IMG/VR virus record: IMGVR_UViG_3300012007_000017
Coordinates: 1-64,000 of that record
Origin: an uncultured virus (IMG/VR IMGVR_UViG_3300012007_000017)
Lineage: Duplodnaviria; Heunggongvirae; Uroviricota; Caudoviricetes
Direction: 5' to 3' (one strand)
DNA: 64,000 bases
A program made the translations under genes and the position numbers. The notes under the pieces were generated by a model, which was not told the origin of the DNA, made no database searches, and worked only from the letters and a program-made list of their open reading frames with translations. Position 1 is the stretch's first letter. Each line of letters begins with the position of its first letter. This document shows, piece by piece, positions 34,926 through 64,000 of the stretch.

Positions 34926-35005
34926 AGATAAAGTTAGGTGATGGTTATATTTTACAGGTTCTTAAATAGGAAACTTTACAACCTATTTTTCAAAGGAGGT
35001 ACAAA

Positions 35006-35209
35006 ATGACTGGAGCAGACAATATTCGTATCGCATTGGACAATTTGACGATGGCTGTACAAGAAAATAGCTATGGTGGCCTCGGCATAGAGGTCATTCA
35101 GAGTTTTGGAGAGCTATATTCGGCAATCGGAATCTATGCTATGGAGATGGAATCGCTCAAGAAAGAAAATGCCATGCTTAGGAAAATGTTAGTTGAGAAG
35201 TTTGGCTAA
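35006..35209 (+). CDS. Cassette gene, hypothetical
   Basis: Motif, RBS, ORF, hairpin 35217-35248. Confidence 0.7.
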   Translation: MTGADNIRIALDNLTMAVQENSYGGLGIEVIQSFGELYSAIGIYAMEMESLKKENAMLRKMLVEKFG

Positions 35210-35307
35210 TGTTGAGGAGAGTACCTGTAGAATCTTACTGGTACTCTCTGTTTTTCTTTTACAGGTCTTAATATAGCAATAATGCTGTTTAAGAAAGGAG
35301 TAAGAAA

Positions 35308-35619
35308 ATGAGTAATCTGAAAGATCAAACGAGTATAACCAAAAAGCATTACATAGCGGGGCTCTTTACCGGACTAGGCGCTGGCGAAGTGGAGCGGAGA
35401 AAACGGGCGGTCGAAATGTTGATTGCTGACAAGGCTGAAGACGTAGATCTTATTGAAACGTTCTATGCCAGAGTTGACATGGAAATCGTGGGGTTGAAGG
35501 CGGCACTTGAACAGAGCAAGTCTGCTGAAGAGGCAAAAGCATGGGCAAAAGATGTTCGGGAGATAATCGAAGATTCTGGATTTATAGAAGCTTATATTGA
35601 CGGCAAATTTGCTATCTGA
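35308..35619 (+). CDS. Cassette gene, hypothetical
   Basis: Motif, RBS, ORF, hairpin 35630-35657. Confidence 0.7.
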   Translation: MSNLKDQTSITKKHYIAGLFTGLGAGEVERRKRAVEMLIADKAEDVDLIETFYARVDMEIVGLKAALEQSKSAEEAKAWAKDVREIIEDSGFIEAYIDGKFAI

Positions 35620-35714
35620 TGAAAAGACGGAGGGTCGCCAAATTTACGGTGGCTCTCTGTTTTTCTTTTACAGCTCTTGTTATAGCAAACTGTGCTGTAG
35701 AGAAAGGAGACTAT

Positions 35715-35984
35715 ATGGTAATCGGTAGAGTTGAAAGAGGCGGAGACCTTGAGATTCTTAAAGATTGGGATCTGAATTTCGAGTTGATAGAAGACAAAGA
35801 CGACTATCTTATCGCTATGACTATAGGCGATAAAGATGAAGAGAACGGAATTGTCGTAACGATCAACGCTGTAGATTTCGATGAAATTAGAGAAACTCTC
35901 ATGTTGGTCCGTTCACAGATTAACAAGAAGATTATACAGAAAAGAAAACTGAATAGAGCATTAGATCGTGAATTTAAAGAATAA
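35715..35984 (+). CDS. Cassette gene, hypothetical (start 35715)
   Basis: RBS aaaggag; the upstream extension in the ORF track runs through a terminator and the motif. Confidence 0.7.
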   Translation: MVIGRVERGGDLEILKDWDLNFELIEDKDDYLIAMTIGDKDEENGIVVTINAVDFDEIRETLMLVRSQINKKIIQKRKLNRALDREFKE

Positions 35985-36129
35985 TATCGAGGAGGGTCAT
36001 TGTGAATTACAGTGGCTCTCCGTTTTTTCTTACAGTGGCTCTCCGTTTTTTTCTAATTTTAGGTGTACACAATTTACAACCATTATTATAGCAATAATGC
36101 TGATTCAATTTACTTAGGAGGAAAATGAA

Positions 36130-36498
36130 ATGAAGAAAATGTTTATGGCAGTAGTAGCAGTAGTTATGGCAATGGCAACCGCAATGCCGGTAATGGCAAA
36201 GGAGGCGGAAGAACCTGTCGTATTGGCTGAGACAACAACTGAATACACTTTCTCAGAGATCGTTGAAGAAATTGAATATTTGGACATTGAGGAGGACGGA
36301 GAAGTCAAGTCCGTAGTCAAGAATGTTGACTATGAGCGTGAAACGTACACTCTGATTGTCACATACAAAGAGACCAATGATGATGGATTCGATTGGGTTT
36401 CCGTAATAGTTGAAAACGGAATGGTCGAGATCCAGGGCAAAGGTCCCGGACAGATGGTGGCAGCAGAGTACGGCTACGAACAGTTCATGGAACAGTAA
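36130..36498 (+). CDS. Cassette gene, acidic exported protein with signal peptide
   Basis: MKK-hydrophobic-VMA signal peptide; Glu-rich mature part. Confidence 0.7.
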   Translation: MKKMFMAVVAVVMAMATAMPVMAKEAEEPVVLAETTTEYTFSEIVEEIEYLDIEEDGEVKSVVKNVDYERETYTLIVTYKETNDDGFDWVSVIVENGMVEIQGKGPGQMVAAEYGYEQFMEQ

Positions 36499-36612
36499 GA
36501 ATACGGAGTGAGGAGTTTAACCGCTCCTCCTCTTTTTTATTTTCAGGTGTACAAAATTTACAGCCCTTATTATAGAAAGAATACACCATTTAAATATAGG
36601 AGGTACAAAACA

Positions 36613-36717
36613 ATGTTAGGAATTATTGATATGGTGCTTGGAGTAGCACTTATTATGGTATTAGTAGCATTCCCGATTTATGTACTTACATGGGAGAAAA
36701 GGTGGAGAGAAAATTGA
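36613..36717 (+). CDS. Cassette gene, 34-aa membrane peptide
   Basis: RBS aggagg; single TM helix. Confidence 0.6.
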   Translation: MLGIIDMVLGVALIMVLVAFPIYVLTWEKRWREN

Positions 36718-36840
36718 ATATGGATAAAGAGAGCATCTAAGACAGGTGCTCTTCTTTTTTTCTAATTTTAGGTGTACACAATTTACAACCCTTATTATAG
36801 AAAGATTACACTAGATTTCTATCTATAAGGAGGCAATAAA

Positions 36841-37034
36841 ATGGCAATCATTATGTTAATCGTATGTGTTAGCTGCAGAATTATCATGGACGTTATTGAT
36901 ATTCAGGAGGCAAGAGCATGATTAAGTGGTTGAGGAATTTACTAAAACTGAATAAAAAGAAAGAAGAGAAACATGTAATAACTATCGATACCGTCTTAGA
37001 GTGGACGGTGTACATTGAGGAATTTGGAGCATAA
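36841..37034 (+). CDS. Two coupled micro-ORFs (36841-36921, 26 aa; 36918-37034, 38 aa)
   Basis: Each has aggagg RBS; ATGA overlap; not in ORF track. Confidence 0.55.
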
Positions 37035-37124
37035 TTTAGGGCTCCTATTCCTTTTATTTTTGCCATGTTTGCCTTTTACAGTTCTTATATTAGAAACAAC
37101 TAACCTTAAAGAAAGGAGAACAAT

Positions 37125-37448
37125 ATGAAAATGTTTAGAAAATGGGAATTAGTCGTTCAGGAATGTGCTCGCCAGGGCAAAGAAAGTGTGCTTGCACTGG
37201 TGACGTTGGACGCAATAGCAGCGATATTCACCGTAGGCGTTATCACCATTTTCAGCGCAATTGTAGAGGCTTTTATAGGCGCTCCCAATTGGCCTGAATT
37301 GGTGCTGGCCTGGTTGGTGGTATATATCGGATGCTTCAATGTAGTCATCGAAGCCACGGCATACGGATTATGCAGGGACGAGCTTGGATGTGACAACGAC
37401 TACATGATCAGAAAATATGTAAAAGAACGTTTTGATGAAGAGATTTGA
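37125..37448 (+). CDS. Cassette gene, two-TM membrane protein
   Basis: Motif, RBS, hydrophobic segments, hairpin 37460-37487. Confidence 0.7.
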   Translation: MKMFRKWELVVQECARQGKESVLALVTLDAIAAIFTVGVITIFSAIVEAFIGAPNWPELVLAWLVVYIGCFNVVIEATAYGLCRDELGCDNDYMIRKYVKERFDEEI

Positions 37449-37519
37449 AAGGAGGTTGTGAGAGGCGTCTATTACAGGCGCTTCTCTTTTTTCCTGATTA
37501 TATTCTACAGTTTTTATAG

Positions 37520-37767
37520 TAGAGGTAAACATAGGCACCCTTAAGAAGCCAACGAACCTGTTAAGCAGGGGAGGCTGCTGTGGAAGTAACAGCTACCTAT
37601 GTATAAGCAGTAGCGTGGCTCACCTCTAATAAAAGGAACCGTGCCCATGTGTGGTAACCCTGAGAAGCATATGAAACTATCAGGGAGGTCTGGATAAAGG
37701 CCTTTAAAAGAGGGTTCGTCAACCACGGTAAATGTCCAGGGCGACGATAGTGACAAAGCCTTTTATT
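37520..37767 (+). ncRNA. Candidate structured ncRNA 1 (~250 nt, two multibranch domains)
   Basis: Follows motif at 37504; no RBS-led ORF; nested stems tagaggt/acctcta, acatagg/cctatgt, aataaaagg/ccttttatt, accgtg/cacggt, ccctga/tcaggg. Confidence 0.7.
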
Positions 37768-37800
37768 TTTCGGGTGTACACAATTTACAGCCCTTATTAT

Positions 37801-37925
37801 AGAAAGAATCAATGGATGACAACCACTCGTGATGGGGGCGTGTTAAGGCGTAAGGACCATCCACAGTAAGTCACTGAGCCGTCTTAGAACGGAGTGCTCA
37901 AACTGAACTTAACAGGTTCTTTTTA
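37801..37925 (+). ncRNA. Candidate structured ncRNA 2 (~120 nt)
   Basis: Follows motif at 37784; stems aaagaatc/ggttcttt, tggatg/catcca, tgagc/gctca, ccgt/acgg. Confidence 0.65.
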
Positions 37926-38121
37926 TTTTTGTAATTTCGGGTGTACGAGAATTACAGCTTTTAATATAGAAGAAAGGAGATGAATTAGATTACATATCTG
38001 TTTCACATCTAAACCCACAAGGAGGCTCGTTACAGGGCCTCTTCTTTTTTTGGTGTGCATAAATTACAGTTCCTAATATAGAAACTTATTGACCACAAAC
38101 AAACTTAAAAGGAGAAATGAA

Positions 38122-38253
38122 ATGAAGAAAGCAATCTTAGGTATCGTAGTGGTGGCAGTAGCAGGTATCGTAGTATGCGCTGTCGCAAAAGCGAACGGTG
38201 TTGACTTTGTTCAGGTTGAGGATACACCTGAGGAGAAGTTCGTGGAAGAGTGA
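38122..38253 (+). CDS. Cassette gene, 43-aa membrane-anchored peptide
   Basis: MKKAILGIVVVAVAG...; RBS aaaggag; not in ORF track. Confidence 0.6.
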   Translation: MKKAILGIVVVAVAGIVVCAVAKANGVDFVQVEDTPEEKFVEE

Positions 38254-38365
38254 GCCTGATCCACTTTACGGATTGACAACTGAATAATGGATTTGGAAGA
38301 GTCGTTAGCGGAAATTGCAACGGCTCTTTCCTTTTTTTACTTAATTATTTTTAGGAGGAGACGGA

Positions 38366-39058
38366 ATGAGACAACCCGAAGATATTAAGATTGGCAATAG
38401 GACATTGGCAGAGGTCATTGAGAATCACAAGCATTGGTGGAAGGAGGATTGCGAAGGATGGAGAGACATGAGAGCAGGCCTCTTTAGAGCAGGCCTCTTT
38501 AGAGCAGACCTCAGTGGAGCAGACCTCTTTAGAGCAAACCTCCGTGGAGCAAACCTCCGTGGAGCAGACCTCAGTGGAGCAGACCTCAGTGGAGCAGACC
38601 TCAGTGGAGCAGACCTCAGTGGAGCAAACCTCAGTGGAGCAGACCTCAGTGGAGCAAACCTCAGTGGAGCAAACCTCAGTGGAGCAGACCTCTGTGGAGC
38701 AAACCTCAGTGGAGCAAAGAATGTTCCATATATCCCTTATGCTTGCCCCGACTTTGGGATGTTCATAGGTTTCAAAAAAGCGTCTGGTTACATTGTTGTG
38801 CTAGAAATCCCAGAGGATGCAAAAAGGCTCTCCGCAACAGGTCGCAAATGCAGATGCGACAAGGCAAAGGTTCTTGAGATTCAGAACGTTGATGGCACCA
38901 AAGCTAATGTTACAAAGGTTAAGAGCGGCTATGATTCGAACTTTGTTTATGAGGTAGGCAAAACGGTAAGCGTTGACAACTTCTGTGAGGACAGGTGGAG
39001 TGAATGCAGCCCAGGAATCCACTTTTTTATCAATCGCCAAGAGGCTATTAATTATTGA
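38366..39058 (+). CDS. Pentapeptide-repeat protein
   Basis: A[DN]L[SR]G repeats; C-terminal KCRC.KA..., EC.PGIHFF domain. Confidence 0.9.
38471..38716 (+). repeat. 15-bp tandem repeat (~16 units) encoding the pentapeptides
   Basis: gagcaRacctcagtg units. Confidence 0.95.
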
Positions 39059-39152
39059 GAGGTGACGGAATGAGCTACATAGATCGTAAGCAGTAAACCC
39101 GTACGCAGGTGACGAGGTAAGCGGATATATTTGTAGAAAGGAGTTACAGGCG

Positions 39153-39920
39153 ATGGGACGAGGATTGTATGGGCAGCGTATCATACAGGATTGGATAGAG
39201 GATAAACGTAAATCTCCTCTTAAAGAAGGAGACATATCTCTCTTGAATGTAGAGTACGCTATGGACATGTATAGAATTAAGAGAGAGTTTTCTCGGATTA
39301 CAACACTTAATTATTTTTGTATGATGCGGCTGTCTAAAAGCAAATACGAAGAAAACAATTATCGATGCATGCTGAATTCAGCGGTTAAGCAGCGGGATTT
39401 TTGTTGGGCAGTATACTGCAATCTTGAGAAATGGGTTGTTGATCCTAAATGGAAAAAGACCTTTGAGCGGGAAATTAAGCAGCTCGACAGTCGCCAAAAG
39501 CATATATACAGGATCGTTCAGGAAAATTTGAAGCTAACCGAATATTGGCCATTTTTTGAGGCAGTTGGCTTTGAACGTCTTTTAAACTTTGAAACTGAAT
39601 ATCGCGAAGATCCTTATGACATTGTGCTTGATCCGTTATTGACGGAAATCGAAGCATGGAACCGTGAGCACAAAGATGAGGTCGACGCCTACACGAAGAA
39701 GATTCAGCCCGAGCTTGACCGTAAAATCGCTTTTCTTACTAGAAAGGAGGCAATGGCAGAAGCTGAAAAAGAAGCCGAGCGAGCTAAGAAAAAAGCTGCC
39801 AAAGACGAGGAGAAAATGCTTAAAGAACAGCGCATACTTAACGACCGGGAAAGACGCAGAGAAGAGCGTGAGTTTAATAGCCTTATGCGTCGGACTAGTA
39901 CACCAGGCTGGACAAGCTGA
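39153..39920 (+). CDS. Hypothetical protein, charged coiled C-terminus
   Basis: 255-aa ORF with RBS. Confidence 0.65.
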   Translation: MGRGLYGQRIIQDWIEDKRKSPLKEGDISLLNVEYAMDMYRIKREFSRITTLNYFCMMRLSKSKYEENNYRCMLNSAVKQRDFCWAVYCNLEKWVVDPKWKKTFEREIKQLDSRQKHIYRIVQENLKLTEYWPFFEAVGFERLLNFETEYREDPYDIVLDPLLTEIEAWNREHKDEVDAYTKKIQPELDRKIAFLTRKEAMAEAEKEAERAKKKAAKDEEKMLKEQRILNDRERRREEREFNSLMRRTSTPGWTS

Positions 39921-39952
39921 TTATATTTTGTAGAAAGGAAATATGAGCAAAT

Positions 39953-40171
39953 ATGATCGAAATATCACTCACTTTAGCGATTATTCTGCTGATTATATTT
40001 TTTATAAGCGGTTTTTTGGCTGGAAGATACTCCAAAAAGCCTGATAAGCGCAAGGGCACTATGACTGTCGATGAGATGATGGGAATCGCTTCTATCAGTT
40101 GGGAAGTTCCTTACGAGGAGGTGGTACAGGCCGATACCATCAGACTCGATGTCATTCATAAGGATGCTTGA
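39953..40171 (+). CDS. Small membrane-anchored protein
   Basis: N-terminal TM helix. Confidence 0.6.
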   Translation: MIEISLTLAIILLIIFFISGFLAGRYSKKPDKRKGTMTVDEMMGIASISWEVPYEEVVQADTIRLDVIHKDA

Positions 40172-40229
40172 ATTTTACAGTTCCTATAATAGGTAACTAT
40201 TGGCTTGCATAAGAAAAGGAGGATTTATT

Positions 40230-40808
40230 ATGCAAATGGAGAAACTGGATAAAATAGCAGATGATTTGGCGGACATGATTTCTGCCGGAACTTCATCAGC
40301 TGCAGAATCGGAAGAGGAACAAGGGAATGTGTTTATCCCTGTAGGCGAATTCCGAGATGTTGCAAAGGCCAGAAACGAACAGGCTAAGCAGGACAATGAG
40401 CAACTCCACTGGGAGACTGAGTGGAAGAAAGCCGAGTTGGACGCAGCAACCAAGCAGAAAGAGGTTGAACTGGAACTGAAGAAGCTGGAGCAGGCGCTGG
40501 AAATCGAGAAGATGAGAGCCGAGAATGAAAAGGCGATCGCGGAGATGAAAGCACTTAACGATCAGCAGGTAGCAGAGACCAGAGCCGCATCTGAAAAGGA
40601 AGCTGCGGAAATTAATAAGGCTGCTTCTGACACTCGCTCTAAGAGAGATCTCATCGGCCGTATCTTGGACTTTATCGGAAGGGTACTTGTTGCAGTCTTG
40701 GGGCTCGGGGCATGCATTTATCAAGCCTCGACCATTCTGCGGGAGGAGGAAGACGGAAATTACGTCAATACCCGCAGCACCAATTTCTGGCATAAGCCCA
40801 GAACGTAA
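40230..40808 (+). CDS. Cassette gene, coiled-coil protein with C-terminal TM helix
   Basis: Motif 40174, RBS, hairpin 40822-40851. Confidence 0.7.
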   Translation: MQMEKLDKIADDLADMISAGTSSAAESEEEQGNVFIPVGEFRDVAKARNEQAKQDNEQLHWETEWKKAELDAATKQKEVELELKKLEQALEIEKMRAENEKAIAEMKALNDQQVAETRAASEKEAAEINKAASDTRSKRDLIGRILDFIGRVLVAVLGLGACIYQASTILREEEDGNYVNTRSTNFWHKPRT

Positions 40809-40932
40809 GTCAGTAACCAAAGGAGGACTTGGCAGAAATGTCAGGTCCTCTGTCTTTTTCATGGTGTACACAAATTACAGTTCCTAATATAGACACTATA
40901 AACTTTGTATTTTTGGGAAAGGAGAAGAAGGC

Positions 40933-41004
40933 ATGAGTTTCGGTATCGTACTTATCTTAATAGGAGTACTCTGGATCATGTTCGAAAACAAGAAGTCAGA
41001 GTAA
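40933..41004 (+). CDS. Cassette gene, 23-aa hydrophobic peptide
   Basis: MSFGIVLILIGVLWIMFENKKSE; sole ORF between motif 40874 and hairpin 41028-41061. Confidence 0.6.
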   Translation: MSFGIVLILIGVLWIMFENKKSE

Positions 41005-41112
41005 CACATAGTATCTAAGGAACTGGCGAAGAGTCGTTGTAAAAGAATACAGCGGCTCTTCTGTTTTTGCTGTAGGAGGCAAGCGATTATATTTTTAGAA
41101 AAGGAGAACAGA

Positions 41113-42162
41113 ATGAGTAACTACAAGACAAAGGAAGCAAACGAAAAGTCAGAGAAGATTCTTGATTATATTTCTGCAAACAGCGAGCAGGGCGTAACCA
41201 TCAAAGACATCGCAATCGCCTTTAACATGCCTGCAGAGACAGTTCGCCATTACGTCAAGACCTTATTCAACAACGGTTACATCGATCGCAGACAGCAGGG
41301 CTATGGTTCTACTCACAGATATTTCTGGAAGAAGCCTGAGGACAAGTCTCAGAATACTATGGAGGATACTGACAAAGAAGCAATGGGCGGAGTCGAGAGA
41401 GATCCTAGCACAATCATTAAGTGCGGCGAGTTCTGCAAAACCGGTGATGTCGTAGAGTGCTCCAGCAGATCTGGTGAAGGATTATATTTCAAGTATCTTG
41501 TACTGGTACCGTGGGAGCGTAAGGCGATGGTTCTCGGAATCTTTCCCGAAGGCCATCCGAATCTCAATCTTAATGACCCGAACCATATTTACATCGGTGA
41601 CGATCCTGAGACCGGCAACAAGCTCTATGTAGATGTCACCAATGTGTGCCAGAGAGGATACAAAACCTTCGGCAAGAGATTCTTCCACGCTGAGAAAGAA
41701 CGCATGGATGATGTCAAGAGCAGACTCAAGAGGGTTTTGCGTCTGGCTGAGCCTGGGCCTAATATCAAAGCTGAGAACCAGGAGCTTCAGGATGATATTC
41801 GGCAGTATAAGCTCGAGAATAAGGCAATGGCTCAGAGATACGAGCAGGATATTAAGGACATTAAAGCGACTCTCGATGCTGCACACGGAGCGGCTATGGA
41901 GTATGAGGCTAAGTACATAGCGGTGCTTAAGGAGAATCAGGAGCTTAACAGGCTTATTGAAAAGCTTAAGGACGAGACTCCTCACGATAAGGAAACCATC
42001 GAACCTGAGTACGATCCTGATTATGTGCAGAAACTGGAAGCCAAGTATGGAGACGCTTTGGTCAAGCTCAAGGCTGCAGAAACCAGAGTCGAGGATTACG
42101 ACTATTTTACTGATGCTATGAAAGATATTGTGATGAAAGTACTTGATAAAGGAGGAAATTAA
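41113..42162 (+). CDS. Winged-HTH and coiled-coil protein
   Basis: TIKDIA..FNM..ETVRHYVK.L...GYI; heptad-rich C-terminus. Confidence 0.7.
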   Translation: MSNYKTKEANEKSEKILDYISANSEQGVTIKDIAIAFNMPAETVRHYVKTLFNNGYIDRRQQGYGSTHRYFWKKPEDKSQNTMEDTDKEAMGGVERDPSTIIKCGEFCKTGDVVECSSRSGEGLYFKYLVLVPWERKAMVLGIFPEGHPNLNLNDPNHIYIGDDPETGNKLYVDVTNVCQRGYKTFGKRFFHAEKERMDDVKSRLKRVLRLAEPGPNIKAENQELQDDIRQYKLENKAMAQRYEQDIKDIKATLDAAHGAAMEYEAKYIAVLKENQELNRLIEKLKDETPHDKETIEPEYDPDYVQKLEAKYGDALVKLKAAETRVEDYDYFTDAMKDIVMKVLDKGGN

Positions 42163-42332
42163 TGCACGAACGTAAAGTTGGTAGACCGCCTCTTCCTGCA
42201 GGAGACCGTAAGGACAAGTCTGTACGGATTAGGCTGTCAACTGATGAACTGAATAGTGTGGTGAAGAAGGCTGAGGAAGAACAAACCTCGGTCTCTTCTT
42301 ATATTCGCGAGAGGATTAAGAACAATGGATGA
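42162..42332 (+). CDS. Ribbon-helix-helix-like DNA-binding protein
   Basis: GRPP...VRIRLS.DE......AEE...SVS.YIR; not in ORF track. Confidence 0.65.
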   Translation: MHERKVGRPPLPAGDRKDKSVRIRLSTDELNSVVKKAEEEQTSVSSYIRERIKNNG

Positions 42333-42483
42333 ACTGAAATTTGTAGAATTTGATAAGTACTGCAGTACATGCATTCACAAGGATGAAGAGGAGAGCGATC
42401 CTTATAAGAAATGCAATGACTGTCTGGCTATTCCGGCAAGAGAGTATTCGCACAAACCTGAGTACTATAAGAAGAAAGATTAA
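42325..42483 (+). CDS. Small Cys-rich protein
   Basis: YCSTC...CNDC; not in ORF track. Confidence 0.6.
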   Translation: MDELKFVEFDKYCSTCIHKDEEESDPYKKCNDCLAIPAREYSHKPEYYKKKD

Positions 42484-42503
42484 TTATATTTAGGAGGAGC
42501 ATT

Positions 42504-42701
42504 ATGGCAGAAAGAATTACGAACACTCTGTTCAAAATTCATGTTGGACGCTTTATTTGGTATGTCAATATGTGGACGTGGTGCTGGGAACATAACGCAC
42601 CGATTTTCATTACGCGGTTGCTCGTTATGCTAATCAAAGTTAATGCAAAAACCGCAGACTTTTTATACAGGTCCCCCGAGTACTCCAAAAAGAAAGATTA
42701 A
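42504..42701 (+). CDS. Hypothetical protein flanked by 43-bp direct repeats
   Basis: RBS; repeats 42457-42499 and 42675-42717. Confidence 0.55.
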   Translation: MAERITNTLFKIHVGRFIWYVNMWTWCWEHNAPIFITRLLVMLIKVNAKTADFLYRSPEYSKKKD

Positions 42702-42722
42702 TTATATTTAGGAGGAGGTACT

Positions 42723-42998
42723 ATGTTAGGTTTTTTCTGTGACTGGTGCGGTAAACCATACAAGCCATATCCTGTGAAAGAATACGGAAACACCATGGCT
42801 GCCGGTTTCTTAAGTAAGAAAAGCGACGCTGACAAGAAAGAGATTCCTATAGGCACTAAAGTTGTTGGCGAAGCCTGGGCATCAATAGAGGGACGCAGCG
42901 AATATGGCTTAAATACTTCTCAAATTTGCCCTGACTGCTATGAGGCATATTTGGAATTTGTGAAGAATAGGAAGGAAGGAACCAATGATCAAGCTTGA
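42723..42998 (+). CDS. Zinc-finger-like protein
   Basis: CDWC...CPDC. Confidence 0.6.
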   Translation: MLGFFCDWCGKPYKPYPVKEYGNTMAAGFLSKKSDADKKEIPIGTKVVGEAWASIEGRSEYGLNTSQICPDCYEAYLEFVKNRKEGTNDQA

Positions 42999-43842
42999 TA
43001 AGATATTCAATCCTAAGGTGCTTAGCGCATTGGCTGTGGCGGGTGTCGTGGCTACAGCAATAATGGCGGCACTCGAAGGAATCAATGGCAGCGATGTTAT
43101 CAGAGAAGCTAAGAAAACCGCTCCTAAGGAAGGCGTCTGGGCTATCTCCAAGCATTATATTCCCAGAGTAGTTCCTGCATTTGGCAAAACCATTGTCATA
43201 GGTGGCGTAACCGTGTTCTGCGTTGTAACATCATGCTACCTCAGTGGTCTGCAGATTGTAGCTTTATCTGGCACCATTGCAGGACTTGTCAGTCAGAGAG
43301 ATGCAGTAGAGAAGGAAATCGTTAAGCTTCCAGGCGGCAAAGAAGCTCTTGCAAAGGTCAAGAAGGAAGTCGCTCTGGCTACGGCTGAGAAGAAGATCGC
43401 TGAGAATGAAAAGCGTAAACCTTGGAAGTATCAGACGATCGAAGATACCGGTTACGGAGATGAATTGTTCCTTGACGAATGGTCTGGGCGATTGTTCCTG
43501 TCATCAGAAGAAGCGGTGAGAAGAGGCTTCGAAAACTTCAATGCTGAAAGAGATGATGGAATGGATCTTCCTTACAATGGGCATAGTGATATGAATCTAC
43601 CGCCAGCAAGTTCATATAACGACTTGTTTACAGCGTGGGGTTTGGTCCCAAGCGGATTAGGCTGGGCTTTTGGATGGCCTGCTAGCGATGATTATTATGA
43701 GCACAGAGCTATACCCTATACTATCGAAGTTATTCCTGTCGAAGAAATGAAAGACAAGGAACTTGAGAAGTACGGAAAAGATCTGCATATCATCCGTATT
43801 CCTGCAGGCTACTATCCTATGGAGTGTTACCTCGAGGTCTGA
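42985..43842 (+). CDS. Membrane-anchored paralogue 1 (DUF6353-like, from recall)
   Basis: P.hydrophobic N-terminus, second TM, acidic C-domain; similar layout to 44186 and 53045. Confidence 0.55.
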   Translation: MIKLDKIFNPKVLSALAVAGVVATAIMAALEGINGSDVIREAKKTAPKEGVWAISKHYIPRVVPAFGKTIVIGGVTVFCVVTSCYLSGLQIVALSGTIAGLVSQRDAVEKEIVKLPGGKEALAKVKKEVALATAEKKIAENEKRKPWKYQTIEDTGYGDELFLDEWSGRLFLSSEEAVRRGFENFNAERDDGMDLPYNGHSDMNLPPASSYNDLFTAWGLVPSGLGWAFGWPASDDYYEHRAIPYTIEVIPVEEMKDKELEKYGKDLHIIRIPAGYYPMECYLEV

Positions 43843-55491: not shown

Positions 55492-55760
55492 AGGGCGAAA
55501 AACCCCAAAAATAGCCTCAGGGTGGGCCACTTTTACCTGGGGTGGGCCACTTTTGGCCCACTTTTTCGAAACAAAAATGGCCCACCTTTTTGCACAAAAA
55601 TGGCACTTTTTGCACAAAAATGGCACTTTTTTGGCACTTTTTTGCACATTTAAGGGGGGTGGGCCACTTTGCCCACTTTTTTTTCTACCTTTATATAGAA
55701 AAAATTAACATATATAAAAAGTTGTTTGAGGCCCAATTTGTCCCGCCCATTTGGCCCAAT
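55416..55760. repeat. Iteron-like repeat cluster, probable replication origin
   Basis: gggtgggccacttt at 55416, 55520, 55540, ~55657; tandem tttttgcacaaaaatggcac; AT-rich tract; upstream of primase-polymerase. Confidence 0.75.
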
Positions 55761-55792
55761 TTTTCATCAAATTAGGAGGTACGAAATGAACG

Positions 55793-58700
55793 ATGCTTGA
55801 CTTTATAAAAATTAAAACCAAGGTAAACAAGGACGCCTCCATCGAAGTTTCACCTGATTATATTTGCAACAAGAAAGTCAGCGATGTAATGATTCGTGGC
55901 GGAGCTTTCTATGCTATCTGGGACGAAGCGCTCGGACTCTGGTCTACAGATGAGCACGACGTCTTTAGGCTGGTTGACAACGAACTCTGGCATAAGGTCG
56001 AGGAGTTGAAGCAGAAGTACGGAACGGATCGTAATTATATTGTCAAGACCATGTCCGAATTCTCTACCAGCAAACTCACCGACTGGAAGAAGTATCTTAA
56101 GGCTAGTCCAGACCTCTATCACGAATTGGATAGTACTGTAACTTTCCGTGATGACGAGGTTGCCAAGGAAGACTATGTAAGTAAGCGCTTGCCTTATTCA
56201 TTGTCTAACGGTCCAACACCTTGCTATGATACTCTGATGAATACATTATATTCTGAGGAGGAGAGAGACAAGATTGAGTGGGCTGTTGGTTCTATATTGA
56301 CTGGCGACTCTCGTAAGATACAGAAGTTCCTTGTCCTGTACGGTGAAGGAGGTATCGGTAAGGGAACAGTTCTGAGAATAGTGGAGGCTATATTTCAGGG
56401 CTATACAATTTCCTTTAACGCAAAGTCTCTTACGTCAAGTAATAACCAGTTTGCCTTATCTCAGTTTAGGTCAAATCCTTTGGTCGCTATTCAGTTTGAC
56501 GGCAAGCTTAACAGAATTGAAGACAATACGCTCTTAAATAGCCTTGTTGCTCATGAACCCATGACTGTAAACGAGAAGTATAAAGCTCAGTATGATGCTT
56601 GCTTCTCGACTTTTTTATTTATGGGTACCAACAGTCCGGTGGCTATTACGGATGCTAAGTCTGGATTGATCAGAAGGCTTATTGATGTTCAGCCAACTGG
56701 TAAACTTCTTCAGCATGATGTTTATGACAGAGCCACGAACGGAGTTAAGTTTGAACTTGGCGCTATTGCTCAGCATTGTATCGACAGGTATAAGGAAATG
56801 GGCATTAGTTATTATGACAAGTACAAACCGACCAGCATGTTCAGCGCTACCAATGACATGTATAACTTTGTCTATGATAATTATGACGAGTTCAATGCAG
56901 AAAATTATATTACTCTTAAACATGCCTGGACTCTGTACAAGGATTATGTGGAAGAAGCCAAGCTGTCATATCCTATGAGTCTTCGAGTCTTTAAATCGGA
57001 ACTAGCTAACTATTTCGAAAAGTTTACCGAGAGAGCCAGAGTCGGTAACGGAGAACGCATTCGCAATGTCTATCAAGGATTTAAAACCGACAAGTTTCAG
57101 ATTCGAGAAGACTTTGTGGATGATTATATTCCCATTGAAGAGCTTGAGGCTAAGGAAGCAGAAGCTGAGAAGGTAACAATGCCCTTCGATTGGCTCAATC
57201 TGGACAAGACAGAGAGTTCTCTTGATTATATTCTTGCAGACTGTCCTGCTCAGTATGCTAAAGAAGATGGAACTCCTGAGAAGCCATGGGACAGAGTTAC
57301 TACGAAGCTTAGGGATTTGGATACGTCCAAGGTTCATTACATTTTGTTACCCGACGGGCATATCATTATCGACCTTGATCTTAAGGACGAAGATGGCAAC
57401 AAATCCATGAAGCTTAACCTGGAGTATGCCAAGAAGTTCCCTCCGACTTATGCTGAGTTCAGTAAAAGCGGAGGCGGTATCCATTTGCATTATGTTTATG
57501 ACGGAGATGTTAATGCGTTACGCCGTATGTATGATGACAATGTGGAAATCAAGGTGTACAGAGGAAATGCATCGCTCAGAAGGAGGCTGAGTTATTGCAA
57601 CGATGTTCCGATTGCTACTATCAGCAGCGGACTGCCAACGAAAGGAGACACCACAACTATGCTTAATGTTGACAGCATTAAGAGTGAGGCGCAGTTGCGG
57701 AGTCTGATTAAGAACTGTTTGGCGAAGAAACATCACGGACACACAACGCCTGAGGTTAATTATATTTTCTCAGAGCTGGAGAAAGCCTATAACAATGGCG
57801 TGTCTTATGATGTTACTGACCTGCGCCCCAAAATCAGGTCTTTTGCGCTTAACAGCCATAATCAGCCCAAACAGTGTATGCGCCTTGTAGGCAAGATGAA
57901 GTTCAAATCCAAGGACTTCGAAGAGAAAGACCTGAATCCTGAAGTACGGACATTGCCTGAGAGCTGGGTCAAAGCTGTGATCAAGGATCATGACCAGCCT
58001 GACGATTACGAAGAAGCCAAAGCGAAAGAAGATTCTTCTAAACCCCTTGTTATATTTGACATTGAGGTTTTCCAGAATCTTCTTTTAATTTGCTGGAAAA
58101 AACTCGGCAAGGAAAATCCTGTAATGACCATGATTAATCCTACGCCTCAGGAAGTTTCTGACTTTGTGGAGAAGTACAGACTCATTGGCTTCAACTGCAG
58201 AGGATACGATAATCATATTTTGTATGCTCGTATTCTTGGCAATGATAATATGGCTATCTACAAGGTATCTCAGAGTATTATCAACAACACTTTCAATGGC
58301 TATGGTCCTGCCTACAGAATTTCTGAAGCTGATATTTATGATATTTGCAAGAAGAAACAGGGCTTGAAGAAGTGGGAGATTGAGCTCGCTGAGAAAGGTC
58401 TATTGGTGCATCACCAGGAGCTTGGCTTCAGATGGGATGAGCCGGTCCCTGAAGATCAGTGGGGTGTTGTTGCTGAGTATTGTGCCAACGACGTTATCGC
58501 TACAGAAGCCGTTTGGGATGCGAATCAGGAAGACGTTAAGGCTCGTATGGCTCTGGCTAAGATTAGCGGTTTGAGCATCAATGAGCGTAACAGAGCGCAT
58601 GCGGCACGGATTATATTTGGGAACAATAAGAATCCTAAGCTTGTCTATACTAAATTGGCTACAGGTGAAAGAAGCGATGGAACCATGGACATCGCTTGCT

Positions 58701-59896
58701 TCCCTGGCTATGAGTACAGGTCGGAAGGCTTTGATCATGATGATTATATTTCCAAAGTAATCACTGGTAAGTCAATGTATAAGAAGCACGACCCGGGAGA
58801 AGGCGGCTTTGTGTATGCTGAACCCGGCATTCACAGGAATGTTGCTCTCTTAGATATTGCTTCAATGCATCCGTCGAGCATTATTGCTCTGAATCTCTTT
58901 GGGGAATACACTCAGAGATTCAAGGAGATAGTTGATGCTCGTCTGGCTATTAAGCACAGAGATACTGAGAAGCTCAAGACTCTGCTTGGTGGCGCTCTTA
59001 TGGATGCTATAGGAAGCGACGAGGACATGGATATTTTGTCTGATGCGCTAAAGCTGGTAATCAACAGTGTCTATGGCTTTACCACAGCTACGTTTGATAA
59101 TCCTTTTAAGGATCCCAGAAATATCGATAATATTGTTGCTAAGCGCGGTGCCTTATTTATGGTTGACCTCAAAGAGGAAGTCCAGAAGAGAGGCTACACG
59201 GTTGCTCATATTAAGACAGATTCTATCAAGATCCCGAATGCTACGCCTGAGATTATTGAGTTCGTCATGGAGTTCGGCAAGAAGTATGGCTATAACTTTG
59301 AGCATGAAGCCACATATGAAAAGATGTGCCTCATGAACGATGCTGTTTATATTGCCAAGTACGACATGAAAGGGCAGCGTAACAAAGGCGGAAAGCATGC
59401 TGGAGAATGGACAGCAACAGGAAAGCAGTTTCAGGTTCCTTATGTATTCAAGAGCTTGTTCAGTCATGAGCCTATCGAGTTCAAGGATCTTTGTGAAACA
59501 AGATCGGTGTCGACCGCGATGTATCTTGACATGAATGAACAGCTTAAGGACGGCGAACACAATTATATTTTCGTTGGTAGAGTTGGTCAGTTCTGTCCTA
59601 TTAAGCCTGGTTGCGGTGGCGGAGAATTACTTAGAGAAAGCAAAGAGCGTGACAAATTTAGCGCTGTTGGAGGCACTAAGGAATTCAGATGGCTTGAGTC
59701 CGAAACGGTTAAGACTTTGGGAAAAGAAGTTGATATCGATCGGGAATATTACAAGCGGCTTGTTGACAGAGCTGTAGAAGATATTTCTAAACTTGGGGAC
59801 TTTGAGTCCTTTGTATCGGAAGGCGTTGATGATTATGTCAGCGCCGTTCCTTTTATGAACGCACCGGAGACTAACGATGATGAAGTCCCGTTCTAA
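55793..59896 (+). CDS. SF3 helicase/primase-DNA polymerase fusion
   Basis: GEGGIGKGT P-loop; DLD..D and SKSGGGIHLHY primase motifs; FDIEV exonuclease; LDIASMHPS, LKLVINSVYG, KTDS polymerase B-type motifs. Confidence 0.9.
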   Translation: MLDFIKIKTKVNKDASIEVSPDYICNKKVSDVMIRGGAFYAIWDEALGLWSTDEHDVFRLVDNELWHKVEELKQKYGTDRNYIVKTMSEFSTSKLTDWKKYLKASPDLYHELDSTVTFRDDEVAKEDYVSKRLPYSLSNGPTPCYDTLMNTLYSEEERDKIEWAVGSILTGDSRKIQKFLVLYGEGGIGKGTVLRIVEAIFQGYTISFNAKSLTSSNNQFALSQFRSNPLVAIQFDGKLNRIEDNTLLNSLVAHEPMTVNEKYKAQYDACFSTFLFMGTNSPVAITDAKSGLIRRLIDVQPTGKLLQHDVYDRATNGVKFELGAIAQHCIDRYKEMGISYYDKYKPTSMFSATNDMYNFVYDNYDEFNAENYITLKHAWTLYKDYVEEAKLSYPMSLRVFKSELANYFEKFTERARVGNGERIRNVYQGFKTDKFQIREDFVDDYIPIEELEAKEAEAEKVTMPFDWLNLDKTESSLDYILADCPAQYAKEDGTPEKPWDRVTTKLRDLDTSKVHYILLPDGHIIIDLDLKDEDGNKSMKLNLEYAKKFPPTYAEFSKSGGGIHLHYVYDGDVNALRRMYDDNVEIKVYRGNASLRRRLSYCNDVPIATISSGLPTKGDTTTMLNVDSIKSEAQLRSLIKNCLAKKHHGHTTPEVNYIFSELEKAYNNGVSYDVTDLRPKIRSFALNSHNQPKQCMRLVGKMKFKSKDFEEKDLNPEVRTLPESWVKAVIKDHDQPDDYEEAKAKEDSSKPLVIFDIEVFQNLLLICWKKLGKENPVMTMINPTPQEVSDFVEKYRLIGFNCRGYDNHILYARILGNDNMAIYKVSQSIINNTFNGYGPAYRISEADIYDICKKKQGLKKWEIELAEKGLLVHHQELGFRWDEPVPEDQWGVVAEYCANDVIATEAVWDANQEDVKARMALAKISGLSINERNRAHAARIIFGNNKNPKLVYTKLATGERSDGTMDIACFPGYEYRSEGFDHDDYISKVITGKSMYKKHDPGEGGFVYAEPGIHRNVALLDIASMHPSSIIALNLFGEYTQRFKEIVDARLAIKHRDTEKLKTLLGGALMDAIGSDEDMDILSDALKLVINSVYGFTTATFDNPFKDPRNIDNIVAKRGALFMVDLKEEVQKRGYTVAHIKTDSIKIPNATPEIIEFVMEFGKKYGYNFEHEATYEKMCLMNDAVYIAKYDMKGQRNKGGKHAGEWTATGKQFQVPYVFKSLFSHEPIEFKDLCETRSVSTAMYLDMNEQLKDGEHNYIFVGRVGQFCPIKPGCGGGELLRESKERDKFSAVGGTKEFRWLESETVKTLGKEVDIDREYYKRLVDRAVEDISKLGDFESFVSEGVDDYVSAVPFMNAPETNDDEVPF

Positions 59897-60497: not shown

Positions 60498-61700
60498 ATG
60501 AGCTTTGAATTAAGAGAACACCAAAAAGCCGCACTCAAAAAGATGCGGAATGGTTGTATTCTGAATGGTTCTGTCGGCTCTGGTAAGTCTCTTACATCGC
60601 TCGCGTATTATTATATTTACATTTGTGGAGGTTCTTTGGAAACTTGGACAATCAAGAAACCAAAGGACCTCTATATTATTACGACTGCGATGAAGCGAGA
60701 CCGTAAAGAATGGCCTGTTGAGCTCATACAGTTTGGCTTGCTTGAAGGCGCTAACGACAACGGAATTAACGTAAAGGTCGATAGCTGGAACAATATCGGC
60801 AAGTACGTCCAAGCCAGTGGCGCCTTCTTTATATTTGATGAACAGCGAGTAGTCGGCAAAGGGGCATGGGTTAAAGCCTTTCTCTCCATTACTAAGAAGA
60901 ATGAGTGGATTCTTTTGTCTGCTACTCCTGGTGATAATTTCATGGATTATTGTCCTGTTTTTATTGCTAATGGCTTTTATAGGAATCGAACCGACTTCAT
61001 TAAGCAACATGTGATTCCTAAGCCATATGTCAAGTATTGGGCTGTGGACCGCTATGTGAATGTGAGGAAATTATATTATTACAGAGACAAGATTCTCGTG
61101 CCTATGGATTTTGAGAGGAACATAGAGTATCACCATATGGACGTGATTGCTCCATATTCATCGTCACTCTACAAGACTGTTCTTAGAGACCGATGGCATA
61201 TTTACGAGAACCGTCCCGTAATTAACGCCAGTGAGCTGTGCTATCTGCTAAGAAGAATAGTTAATAGCGATGAGCGAAGGCTGAATATGGTTTCGGACTT
61301 GCTTGACACGCATCAGAAGGCGATTATATTTTTCAACTTCACTTATGAGGCCAATCTGCTGACCAGACTGTGCAACACAAAAGGAATAGCTGTCGCTAAA
61401 TGGGATGGCGAAAAGCACGAGCAGATACCCAAAGCAGAACGATGGGCTTACCTCGTTCAGTACGCAGCAGGCGACAGTGGATGGAACTGCACAGAGACAG
61501 ACACAATTATATTTTACAGCCAAAACTATTCGTACAAATCAACCGTTCAGGCAGCAGGACGAATTGATAGATTGAACTCTCCGTTCTCAGACTTATATTA
61601 CTATCACATTCGTTCTCACGCAGGAATAGACAACGCAATACATCGTGCACTCAAACAGAAGAAGAAATTTAATGAGAGATCCTTCTGTGGATCTTTGTAG
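60498..61700 (+). CDS. SF2 (SNF2-like) helicase
   Basis: GSGKS, FDE, LSATP, QAAGRIDR motifs. Confidence 0.9.
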   Translation: MSFELREHQKAALKKMRNGCILNGSVGSGKSLTSLAYYYIYICGGSLETWTIKKPKDLYIITTAMKRDRKEWPVELIQFGLLEGANDNGINVKVDSWNNIGKYVQASGAFFIFDEQRVVGKGAWVKAFLSITKKNEWILLSATPGDNFMDYCPVFIANGFYRNRTDFIKQHVIPKPYVKYWAVDRYVNVRKLYYYRDKILVPMDFERNIEYHHMDVIAPYSSSLYKTVLRDRWHIYENRPVINASELCYLLRRIVNSDERRLNMVSDLLDTHQKAIIFFNFTYEANLLTRLCNTKGIAVAKWDGEKHEQIPKAERWAYLVQYAAGDSGWNCTETDTIIFYSQNYSYKSTVQAAGRIDRLNSPFSDLYYYHIRSHAGIDNAIHRALKQKKKFNERSFCGSL

Positions 61701-61791
61701 GTGTGCACATTTTACAATCATTGTAATAGAGAGGAAGAAACGATATACATGACACATCGTTCCGGCCTCTTTTTTCTTTTGGAGAAGAAAC

Positions 61792-62082
61792 ATGCTTGAA
61801 AGTAAATTCAAGACGAAACTTATCAAAGAAATAAAAGTCAGACTTCCAGGTTCTTTTGTTTTTCATCTAGATCCTTCAGAAAGGCAAGGCGTACCTGACT
61901 TAATTGTTTTGTACAAAGACAAGTGGGCTGTCCTTGAAGGAAAGAGAAAGTCTAAGGCAACGCATCAGCCTAATCAGGATTTCTATGTATGGCTGTTCAA
62001 TGAGATGTCGTTCGCCAGGATTATATTTCCAGAAAACGCTAAGGAGGTACTAGATGAAATGGAACGAGCATTATCGGCTTAA
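61792..62082 (+). CDS. VRR-NUC-like nuclease
   Basis: E..F, GVPDL, LEGK, QPNQ. Confidence 0.8.
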   Translation: MLESKFKTKLIKEIKVRLPGSFVFHLDPSERQGVPDLIVLYKDKWAVLEGKRKSKATHQPNQDFYVWLFNEMSFARIIFPENAKEVLDEMERALSA

Positions 62083-62617
62083 AGGTCAACATGCGATCTT
62101 TAGTCCATCTACTCCAAGCTGGCTTCGCTATGATGAGGCAAAAATCAGAAGCTTCTTAGAAGCGAAAGAAGCAATGGTTCTTGGCACAAAGCTTCATGAC
62201 TATGCTTGTCAGAGTATTCAGCTTGGACGCAACTTACCCAAAAGACCTGCTGACACTGTATCGCTCTATGTCAACGACGCAATTAAGTACGGAATGACGC
62301 CAGAGCAATGCTTATATTTTTCACCAAGTGTCTTCGGACATGCGGATGCTATCAAATTTGATAGAGGACTCTTACGGATACACGACCTTAAAACAGGCGC
62401 GAATCCAGGCAAAATGGATCAGCTGCTAATCTACGATGCCCTGTTCTGTCTTGAGTATGGATACGATCCTCATAGCATTAAGCACAACTTGAGAATCTAT
62501 CAGTACGACGACATTAACGAGGTTACGCCTGACCCAGACGAGATTGCACAAATCATGGATCAGATTATTCGAGTTGATGACATCAAGACAGAAAGAGAGG
62601 AATCGATGTATGAATGA
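62054..62617 (+). CDS. PD-(D/E)XK exonuclease-like protein
   Basis: GT.LH, GHADAI, IHDLKTG, QL.IY. Confidence 0.8.
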   Translation: MKWNEHYRLKGQHAIFSPSTPSWLRYDEAKIRSFLEAKEAMVLGTKLHDYACQSIQLGRNLPKRPADTVSLYVNDAIKYGMTPEQCLYFSPSVFGHADAIKFDRGLLRIHDLKTGANPGKMDQLLIYDALFCLEYGYDPHSIKHNLRIYQYDDINEVTPDPDEIAQIMDQIIRVDDIKTEREESMYE

Positions 62618-64000
62618 ATTATATTCTAGATTAGTTGGACCTTTCTTAAGACATGAAGGCAGAGGACGAGACGATCCAAGACTTGCCAGCGAATCTCAAA
62701 GAGGTTCTGGTCGTTATCCTAAGGACTCAGGTAAGAATCCTGGACAGCATCAGGATACTATTCCATGGAGCAGACGAGAAATCGATAGACTACGTGGAGA
62801 AGGTATCTCTATGGCTGAAATAGCCGAGATGTATGGCACAAGTCAGAATAAGTTAAGAGCTTATATTTCTCAGTCTAATGTTGAAAGAATTGCTGATGAA
62901 AGAGCCGAATGCATTAGACTCAGTAAAGAAAAAGGCATGTCTATTCGAGATATTGCCAAAGAAACAGGTTTAACCCCTACCACTGTTCGAAATCGCCTTG
63001 CCGATTACACTCAGGCAAAGATCGATAAAGAAGAGAAGTATAAAGAGATCCTCAGAGAACAGATTGAAAAACATGGCCATCTCGATGTAGGACTTGGTAA
63101 TGAGCACAATCTTGGTGTAAGCGAAACCAAGATGAAACAGCTTGTTCAGGCACTTAAAGACGAAGGCTATGTCCTTAGTAAACCTCGTATTCCTCAGGCT
63201 GGCACCGGTTACGACACGCATTTGCTTGTTCTGTCTAAGAAAGGCACTCCCAAGAATTATATTTATAACCACATCGAAGAAATCAAGCCGATGGACGATT
63301 TAAACATCGTCGATCTTGGAGATGGTCCTAAAAAGAAGGAACTTCATGACCCTTTAAGTATCGATTCCAAGCGTTGTATGGTTCTTTACAACGAAGAAGG
63401 AGGATTAGCTAAAGACGGACTTGTTGAGCTTCGTAGAGGCGTTCCTGAACTCAACCTTGGAAAGAGCAACTATGCCCAGGTTCGTATTGTTGTTGATAAT
63501 TCGCATTATATTAAGGGGATGGCAGTATATTCTGACGATCTTCCCGAAGGTGTGGATATTCGCTTCAACACTAATAAGCACGAGGGAACGCCTATGCTTG
63601 GCGCTGATAAAGACAATACGGTCTTTAAGCCTCTTAAAGGCGAAGGACTGAATGGATTTGGCGCTACGATTAGAGACCAGAATGAATGGGTTGATGACAA
63701 AGGCCAGACTCATTTTGGCGTTGTCAATATCGTAAAAGAACAGGGCGTTTGGGCAGACCAGCAGAAGACGCTTGCGTCCCAGTTCTTGAGTAAACAGCCC
63801 CATGCTCTAGCTAAAAAGCAGTTACAAATCGATTTGGATAATCGCAAGGACGAATTTGACACAATCATGTCCCTTACTAATCCTGCGATTAAACAGCGCA
63901 TGCTTAAGTCGTATGCTGACGAATGCGATGCTGCCGCAGTTCATTTAAAAGCTGCCGCAATTCCTAGGCAGGCATGGAATGTTATAATTCCGATGACTAC
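62610..64000 (+). CDS. Large HTH-containing protein, 5' part; probable single-subunit RNA polymerase (runs off window)
   Basis: Open frame from ATG 62610 (MNELYSRL...), absent from ORF track; two HTH-like segments; SGRYP..SG, DGLVELRRGV, NYAQVRI, LASQFLSKQ, AVHLKAAA motifs recalled from this family; catalytic motif not in window. Confidence 0.6.
   Translation, partial: MNELYSRLVGPFLRHEGRGRDDPRLASESQRGSGRYPKDSGKNPGQHQDTIPWSRREIDRLRGEGISMAEIAEMYGTSQNKLRAYISQSNVERIADERAECIRLSKEKGMSIRDIAKETGLTPTTVRNRLADYTQAKIDKEEKYKEILREQIEKHGHLDVGLGNEHNLGVSETKMKQLVQALKDEGYVLSKPRIPQAGTGYDTHLLVLSKKGTPKNYIYNHIEEIKPMDDLNIVDLGDGPKKKELHDPLSIDSKRCMVLYNEEGGLAKDGLVELRRGVPELNLGKSNYAQVRIVVDNSHYIKGMAVYSDDLPEGVDIRFNTNKHEGTPMLGADKDNTVFKPLKGEGLNGFGATIRDQNEWVDDKGQTHFGVVNIVKEQGVWADQQKTLASQFLSKQPHALAKKQLQIDLDNRKDEFDTIMSLTNPAIKQRMLKSYADECDAAAVHLKAAAIPRQAWNVIIPMT

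Follow-up and report, generated by a model that had tools for sequence, protein, structure and literature searches.

A short strand-polar word written through the genes of an uncultured phage and its relatives behaves as a selected DNA site and may serve a phage-encoded RNA polymerase

Short words at high density through coding sequence are known as KOPS/FtsK sites, Chi and DNA uptake sequences; KOPS and Chi are skewed between the strands, and uptake sequences shape amino-acid use. The stoperators of mycobacteriophage L5 are numerous asymmetric sites of 13 bases oriented with transcription, and an mRNA cleavage site of the RegB type follows the sense of its gene. Among primases, the NrS-1 primase-polymerase reads an 8-base template word, the sites being TTTGGTTA/GTG for NrS-1 and GTG for pRN1 (PMC8718748). 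As to transcription, 23 starts have been mapped in phage P23-45, whose polymerase has been proposed to use an AT-rich promoter motif (PMC10770324), the accessible text on YonO gives one mapped start and no defined promoter (PMC5467207), and the late promoters of SPO1 have GATATT as their -10 box (PMC3601020). Here we analyze a stretch of 64,000 bases (the window), comprising bases 1-64,000 of the 66,153-base phage record IMGVR_UViG_3300012007_000017, in which the word TTATATTY recurs on one strand. A first-pass annotation had taken the word for a protein- or RNase-recognized mark on early transcripts, a stoperator-like site or a polar DNA site, an interpretation that is partly supported by the results below.

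All called intact genes of the window lie on the + strand, the left half containing head, tail and lysis genes and the right half small genes and replication genes. The 8-mer TTATATTY is the strong form of a core, (T)KATATTY(Y), which was also counted as ATATTY and as the 7-mer KATATTY. It was found 63 times on the + strand and once on the - strand, in line with the polarity described earlier; a third-order Markov model ranked it first among both 7-mers and 8-mers in the early arm. Its one-mismatch neighbors were counted 0-8 times in all cases except TTATATTC, so that the signal is sharp. The roughly 50 copies estimated between 34,944 and 63,265 proved to be 56, each of the 24 coordinates listed for them matched a copy within 3 bases, and the handful mentioned for 21-34.9 kb amounted to seven. 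Copies do reside both within genes and in front of ribosome-binding sites, as had been noted; of the 19 outside genes, 13 lie 35 nt or less from a start codon. The usual form given, GATTATATTT, was too strong a generalization, applying to 16 of the 56 copies, while GATTATATTY applied to 23. Between 60,462 and 60,495, a 17-base tandem duplication doubles the word in front of the helicase start; a related contig does not contain these 17 bases.

Synonymous shuffling was a check set beforehand, and the enrichment went beyond this codon-aware null model: early coding sequences contain 38 copies of the 8-mer, compared to 5.6 +/- 2.2 expected and a maximum of 13 in 1000 shuffles. We define an opportunity as a place where the protein sequence permits the word, and realization as the share of opportunities filled. 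Early genes filled 37 of 48 opportunities for the 8-mer and late genes five of 18. For the core, synonymous shuffles of the late arm gave 17.6 expected copies of ATATTY against 45 observed, and 23.0 against 10 for its reverse. Thus, the statements that the signal is absent from 1-21 kb and restricted to early transcripts hold for the 8-mer, but not for the core, which is enriched genome-wide with an early bias. The shuffles and expectation tests rule out a composition or codon artefact. A single mutational bias was rejected by inference, because the reading frames need different changes (TAT, ATT, rare ATA, TTA) and because new, lineage-specific opportunities have been filled. In the DNA polymerase gene, the four-fold sites of which are saturated (identity 0.29), conserved opportunities were filled in 21/21 and 36/38 cases and lineage-specific new ones in 74/112 and 66/99.

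By its polymerase and terminase the genome belongs with Faecalibacterium phage Oengus, the Lactococcus 1706-like phages and the actinophage clusters AM, AU, AW, DJ, CC, BI and EL, a phage group covered by 10.1101/842583 in its accessible part. Using an expectation from codon use outside motif-compatible positions, we found the core enriched at least 2-fold in 84 of 116 dereplicated members of this supercluster, the present genome included, and less than 1.5-fold in 20; MT835495, which gave no polymerase hits in the compared stretch, was left out. Cultured examples, counted on + and - over 50-kb stretches, are Tanis (99/0), ReqiPepy6 (142/1) and Camille (68/2). When synonymous flanks were compiled for 2,515 sites from 72 phages, they yielded TKATATTYY, with z values inflated by homologous sites, and the 5′ variants of the core differ by lineage (TT, TG or C-containing). 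Among the six closest genomes, the core reached observed-to-expected ratios (O/E) of 2.3-3.2 in six of seven zones and 1.45 from portal to neck, and the TT 8-mer, with an O/E of about 2 for the head module, climbed to 6.6-8.3 in the early arm. Word density increases toward the right end of the genome, opportunities for the 8-mer amounting to 1.7 per kb in the early region versus 0.4 per kb in the head module, and realization was highest (14/15) in the stretch from the DNA polymerase to the exonuclease gene. Seven actinophages (Circum, Xenomorph, MrAaronian, Lewando, Argan, JoyLin and Pippin15) are enriched on both strands in the same regions, though all their genes point one way; Niktson and Qui are enriched on the forward strand only, and P118, CHPC971 and L263 are devoid of the word. 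At the largely non-coding right end of genome L227, 200-1,455 bases past the RNA polymerase stop, 34 same-strand copies of ATATTY, mostly as GCATATTT, fill 1.25 kb, and a looser AAAGATATTT array occupies the right end of L088. No description of the word was found in the open-access literature searched; subscription papers on 1706 and ReqiPepy6, figures and supplements lay outside the search and may mention it. A role of TTATATT as a late promoter of phage K was not confirmed by the accessible text of PMC11598898 (0 occurrences).

The position of the word was examined in relation to genes, strands and neighboring copies. Realization was flat along genes, ranging from 0.59 to 0.63 by fifths. Just before ribosome-binding sites the excess was 4.5-fold, the median of 64 A/T hexamers being 1.75; other T-rich hexamers equaled it, and a special link to ribosome sites is therefore not supported. 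Reverse-oriented integrase genes of close relatives carried the 8-mer on the genome + strand in 10/10 cases, compared to 5/21 in 25 unrelated integrases. For the core, the values were 19/28 in reverse-oriented family integrases and 52/171 in unrelated ones, and the word in the sense of the gene was realized in 2/17. This test comprised four related genes and one row without the motif in its flanks; the integrase of Oengus showed no genome-strand effect (core 1/6). A cleavage site in mRNA should follow the sense of the gene, which the family integrases do not show; they show polarity by genome strand instead of gene sense, as would be expected of a primase site. In the six closest genomes the reverse 8-mer was realized at 8/167 opportunities, and the reverse 7-mer occurred 80 times against 148 expected, summed over zones. 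We relied on these genomes because an O/E of 0.23 for the reverse word was biased, 46 of 100 loci having been picked partly for low reverse counts, and was set aside. No polarity switch was seen at the putative origin in any genome examined, so bidirectional replication from there was rejected.

Copies also keep their distance from each other. At 46 motif-rich loci, realization fell to 0.26 (34/130) when the next copy was less than 20 bp away, was 0.33-0.47 at 20-59 bp and 0.58-0.71 beyond. This dip was the same upstream and downstream, and neither the reverse word nor six of seven control hexamers had a comparable one; the seventh overlaps the motif. The window contains four close KATATTY pairs, compared to 11.0 expected. 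Opposite-facing pairs less than 60 bp apart were reduced as well (22 vs 41.2 +/- 5.9 expected in eight genomes). In the corresponding opportunity test the effect was strong in six genomes (11/124 vs 352/1371) and absent in two of cluster AM (25/71 vs 185/565). Mutual exclusion of opposite-facing sites is what a protein on duplex DNA would produce, and is not predicted for a reader of single-stranded DNA or RNA. The word is thus a selected, footprint-spaced and usually directional DNA word, and the earlier suggestion of a polar DNA site is borne out.

Two genomes have replaced it. L198 and L267 lack ATATTY and instead contain CCAAAAT, with 75 + and 2 - copies and 90 + and 2 - copies, respectively. 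As CCAAAATR this word differs by one base from the late word TCAAAATG, is biased toward the early region (six-fold for CCAAAAT) and forms one close pair where 15.4 were expected. Its polarity ends at the end of the L267 prophage, and one 15-kb prophage flank shows none. As both genomes have many substitutions in common, the swap may be a single event. The late word itself marks late regions throughout the group: TCAAAATG(G) as a 9-mer gave 139 copies versus 0 in reverse in 653 kb, and TCAAAATG had an O/E of 3.9 in late and 0.51 in early genes, while in L085 and L112 it is spread genome-wide. TCAAAATG(G) is polar and exact across the group, and in 50 of 204 pooled copies, including that of the capsid gene at 8,745, it contains a start codon. 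ATATTY and TCAAAATG appeared to exclude each other as well (6/43 vs 509/1451), which is suggestive, the comparison being confounded by gene class. The ATATTY-type, CCAAAAT-type and TCAAAATG words all seem to have the N-A-W-A-W-T shape of a -10 element.

The reader is most likely a phage product. We counted candidates over 25 genomes or long genome stretches. RNA polymerase, DNA polymerase, SF2 helicase, exonuclease, the DUF6353 family and gene 45957 were present in all 25. The annotation had named as possible readers two helix-turn-helix (HTH) proteins, 41113 and 46766, and a ribbon-helix-helix protein, 42162; found in five, one and three of the 25, respectively, they are too patchy. The right end of the window falls inside a DFDGD-bearing open reading frame, which encodes the two-barrel, HTH-flanked RNA polymerase of the group. 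The fold model of a relative's enzyme matches QDE-1, P23-45 gp64 and phi14:2 gp66, and in 1706 the homologue carries the annotation of a structural protein. HTH domains reside at both ends of the protein (10.1101/842583, accessible part); this source and the compared genomes define its range. In L198 and L267 the recognition helix of one polymerase HTH domain carries R127K, at a position where 108 of 115 sequences have R.

A footprint of approximately 60 bp has the size of a polymerase. On the reading that we favor, the word would be bound, in double-stranded DNA, by a complex encoded by the phage; this complex would cover about 60 bp and would usually have to point the way that gene traffic runs. 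Any site lying more than one footprint from the next would add a small, independent benefit, because of which selection would write the word wherever the proteins permit, most densely in the early arm. The complex would be the HTH-armed two-barrel RNA polymerase, using -10-like words as distributed loading or weak start sites, with KATATTY as the class for general use, biased toward the early region, and TCAAAATG as that for late DNA. To the observed selection, polarity, indifference to position, spacing, replacement by CCAAAATR and pairing with a late word we thus add, tentatively, the polymerase as the complex, which we infer from the early/late word pair, the -10-like shape and the polymerase-size footprint. 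That such a single-chain polymerase is, besides a few dedicated promoters, loaded genome-wide at footprint-spaced, codon-embedded words of 7-9 bases, in an early and a late class and with a code that can be swapped between lineages, is a doubtful extension of this reading.

Several observations weigh against the polymerase. The word is not placed like a promoter upstream of genes or operons, being flat along genes with 37 of 56 copies in coding sequences, and its excess before ribosome sites is that of other T-rich hexamers. The cassette motif ACAGYYYYTAWWATAG, which has ACA-N6-TATAATG forms in relatives, is better placed as a promoter. Some copies were said to be fused to it, and four cassette-type sites do have TTATATTY directly in front; a fixed link between the word and cassette promoters was rejected, as there are only these four in the window. 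Moreover, the only cassette near the well-filled stretch from DNA polymerase to exonuclease lies at ~61.7 kb, which speaks against a simple funnel to cassette promoters. No purine peak downstream of the word marked a start site in the 2,515 sites of 72 phages. The antisense word, depleted in the closest clade, is enriched in the seven actinophages with both-strand enrichment, which antisense starts would not favor. The second HTH recognition helix varies between phages with the same word. The motif variant is not followed by distances of the N-terminal and middle polymerase parts and is followed weakly, in one of two tests each, by those of the catalytic and C-terminal parts, and P118, CHPC971 and L263 retain the polymerase without the word.

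A replication signal is a less likely but serious alternative. The word could be the recognition site of an AEP primase on the lagging-strand template (+ strand, rightward forks) or a duplex loading site for the hexameric helicase-primase-polymerase. This enzyme was present in 25/25 genomes or long stretches, and its primase, with AEP motifs and the NrS-1 primase-polymerase fold, is of a sequence-reading type. Polarity by genome strand through antisense genes, the flat distribution in genes and the genome-wide enrichment of the core fit such a signal, and forks in both directions could account for the use of both strands. However, a reader of single strands would leave opposite-facing sites independent, polarity is constant across the putative origin, and temporal features are seen in that CCAAAAT is biased six-fold toward the early region and that early genes avoid TCAAAATG. 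The sequence of the primase gave mixed indications. L198 and L267 carry Y488L in the primase domain, and a residue other than Y at 488 goes along with tolerance of C at -1 (7 vs 32 genomes, p=0.013, uncorrected for relatedness), but L488 is present in five other genomes, and in the three of these that were checked (Circum, L013, L019), 0-2 copies of CCAAAAT precede the RNA polymerase gene. Neither primase nor helical-bundle distance followed the variant (partial r 0.03 and -0.10, respectively, n=33). No natural separation of primase and RNA polymerase was found among the 253 records matched by the primase region, the host spectrum of which equals that of the terminase. Matches to this region were confined to the phage group, and in its order, helicase - primase - PolB, the primase follows the helicase, whereas NrS-1 and D5-type enzymes have the reverse arrangement.

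Somewhat less likely again, but still to be taken seriously, is that another core protein coats the duplex or translocates on it, polarity stemming from a one-way obstacle or motor; examples would be KOPS-like loading of the SF2 helicase, or tethering or shielding of the genome by the products of genes such as 45957 and 54931. This would explain an additive benefit, the footprint, the cross-orientation exclusion and lineages with relaxed orientation, and the non-coding arrays near the right end, such as the one of L227, suit a coating role. Genes 45957 and 54931 occur in 25 and 23 of 25 genomes or long stretches, but no DNA-binding family was found for either and the ESM Atlas gave nothing on them. 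The closest association with the -1 preference was that of SF2 helicase distance (partial r 0.15, p=0.022, n=60; 0.23, p=0.024, n=33). This signal is weak, carries no correction for the several tests made, and may stem from a better phylogenetic marker or from locus retrieval. Covariation overall did not name the reader: the SF2 helicase followed the variant weakly, the primase not at all and the RNA polymerase parts inconsistently, the trees were poorly resolved, and no diagnostic residue was found in the SF2 helicase or elsewhere. No FtsK-like gene was seen in the window, and a coating protein does not by itself explain the early/late word pair.

Negative, RNA-level and host-read readings fit worst. 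A negative element, i.e. a repressor-bound stoperator or a sequence-specific terminator that silences or attenuates transcription, is improbable. Close relatives are temperate, the asymmetric orientation with transcription seen in the window, though not in all lineages, is that expected of stoperators, and the capsid gene avoids the word (0/35 opportunities) while low-copy late genes carry it. Yet codon bias can explain this avoidance, because the reverse word is missing from the capsid gene too (0/32), and the terminase genes upstream of it are enriched. Depletion of the reverse word is not expected of terminators, the candidate repressors are those found to be patchy, and lytic-type members carry the word most strongly: the compared stretches of Tanis, ReqiPepy6 and Camille list neither an integrase nor a repressor, which makes the stoperator-like site of the annotation unlikely. 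For cluster EL, the accessible text of PMC7302621 likewise reports no integrase or repressor. The mark for RNase cleavage or shut-off of mRNA is disfavored as well. An RNA-level mark on early transcripts (endoribonuclease site, RNA-binding protein site or antiterminator) would suit the sense orientation in nearly all genes, the 13 copies just before start codons and the Oengus integrase, and + strand read-through could cross the integrase gene; against this stand the genome-strand polarity of reverse integrases, reverse depletion, both-strand enrichment, cross-orientation exclusion and the missing preference within genes, leaving it a very small chance. A host-read signal (Chi-like site, sigma -10 decoy or nucleoid-protein site), for which the existence of Chi-rich phages (PMC12315714) and the rising density toward the right end might speak, is the least credible, as one word serves phages of both Bacillota and Actinomycetota, Circum and Niktson differ in strand use on the same host strain, CCAAAAT polarity ends at the L267 prophage boundary, and TATAAY is not enriched (O/E 0.74).

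The features discussed are compiled in Table 1. Between 34,480 and 34,960, the integrase remnant breaks off beside the cassette at 34,945. A stretch resembling a tRNA immediately ahead of the remnant may be attP, although ARAGORN calls no tRNA. The putative origin (55,420-55,793) precedes the DNA polymerase gene and contains an AT-rich patch and nine repeats of the GGSCCACTT/GGCACTTTT type. A pentapeptide-repeat gene (38,366-39,058) contains a DNA repeat that ranks second in strength among the word families of the early arm. A short N-terminal motif family is common to four genes around the terminase (1,416-7,427), with DUF7211 in the first and shared PHROG hits in all four. At the left end (70-120), a GC-rich inverted repeat followed by ATCGCGCCGG marks the presumed cos junction and is kept there in relatives; the polar word that a given genome uses is often located at this site. 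In three relatives (G002, G003 and G004), GATC-containing words exceeded the codon-shuffle expectation.

Table 1. Positions of the words, motifs and genes discussed in the text (window coordinates).
Feature	Position	Strand	Remarks
TTATATTY, strong form of (T)KATATTY(Y), 56 copies	34945..63264	+	37 in genes (all three frames), 19 outside
TTATATTY, 7 more copies	21340..34519	+	tail-tip, lysis and attachment region; rising flank of gradient
Head and tail module	1..21000	+	no 8-mer; KATATTY 21 on + vs 2 on -
Late word TCAAAATG, 10 copies	2126, 5003, 8745, 10558, 12557, 12569, 18474, 22836, 24973, 31993	+	span 2126..32000; one more at 53496
3′ integrase gene remnant	34668..34922	-	95% identical to relative G001; intact copies in relatives served the orientation test
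Cassette motif ACAGYYYYTAWWATAG, 15 copies	35261..52719	+	upstream of small genes; separate from TTATATTY
Cassette-type sites with TTATATTY directly in front	34945, 37498, 43843, 52073	+	4 sites
Non-coding repeat tract, putative origin	55491..55793		GGSCCACTTTT-type repeats, AT-rich patch; motif polarity constant across it
SF3 helicase - AEP primase - PolB fusion	55793..59896	+	rival candidate reader
Primase domain, residues 472-619	57206..57649	+	NrS-1 primase-polymerase fold: 6a9w, Z 10.1, root-mean-square deviation 3.4, 142 aligned
SF2 helicase	60498..61700	+	weak covariation with motif variant; rival candidate reader
RNA polymerase gene, 5′ part, two-barrel (YonO/gp64-like), N-terminal HTH domains	62610..64000	+	runs to 65,438 of the genome, DFDGD motif there; candidate reader

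Selection for the word has left a strong and long-lived imprint on coding sequences throughout a large group of phages, which extends from gut Bacillota to soil Actinomycetota and includes many cultured laboratory phages. Its reader can be found directly, because the footprint is measurable, one replacement has arisen naturally, and some lineages have lost the word or use it on both strands. Each of the three leading candidates would bring new biochemistry: for the RNA polymerase, how an HTH-bearing two-barrel enzyme finds DNA; for the replicase, the specificity of an unstudied helicase-primase-polymerase fusion; and for another core protein, a phage-made genome-marking protein. Should genome-wide loading be true, it would constitute a distributed, codon-embedded transcription address system.

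Among the described systems, P23-45 (gp96/gp64) and SPbeta (YonO) have the polymerase fold to which the enzyme of this genome is related, and the promoters of P23-45, YonO and SPO1 resemble the present case by a short AT-rich -10-like word and by early and late classes. Unlike in P23-45 and YonO, more than 100 core sites per genome are present here, which are indifferent to gene starts and lie on both strands in some lineages. With the primase sites of NrS-1 and pRN1 the system has in common the primase fold and a short, strand-polar, position-independent word; unlike these, its opposite-strand sites exclude each other, early and late regions are partitioned, and there is no switch at the putative origin. 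Cluster AU phages, of the same supercluster, contain a 32-bp intergenic repeat in six copies around a gene cassette (10.1101/2020.01.10.891226, accessible part), which by location and number is unlike the word and probably corresponds to the cassette motif. As with the L5 stoperators, many asymmetric sites run along transcription, but this word is shorter (7-9 bases vs 13), resides mostly in genes and is strongest in phages without a listed repressor. Like KOPS, Chi and uptake sequences, it is dense in coding sequence, skewed, and shapes amino-acid use, as the opportunities per kb illustrate; it differs from them in its sequence, in being apparently read by the phage, in being replaceable, and in its 60-bp exclusion and late sibling.

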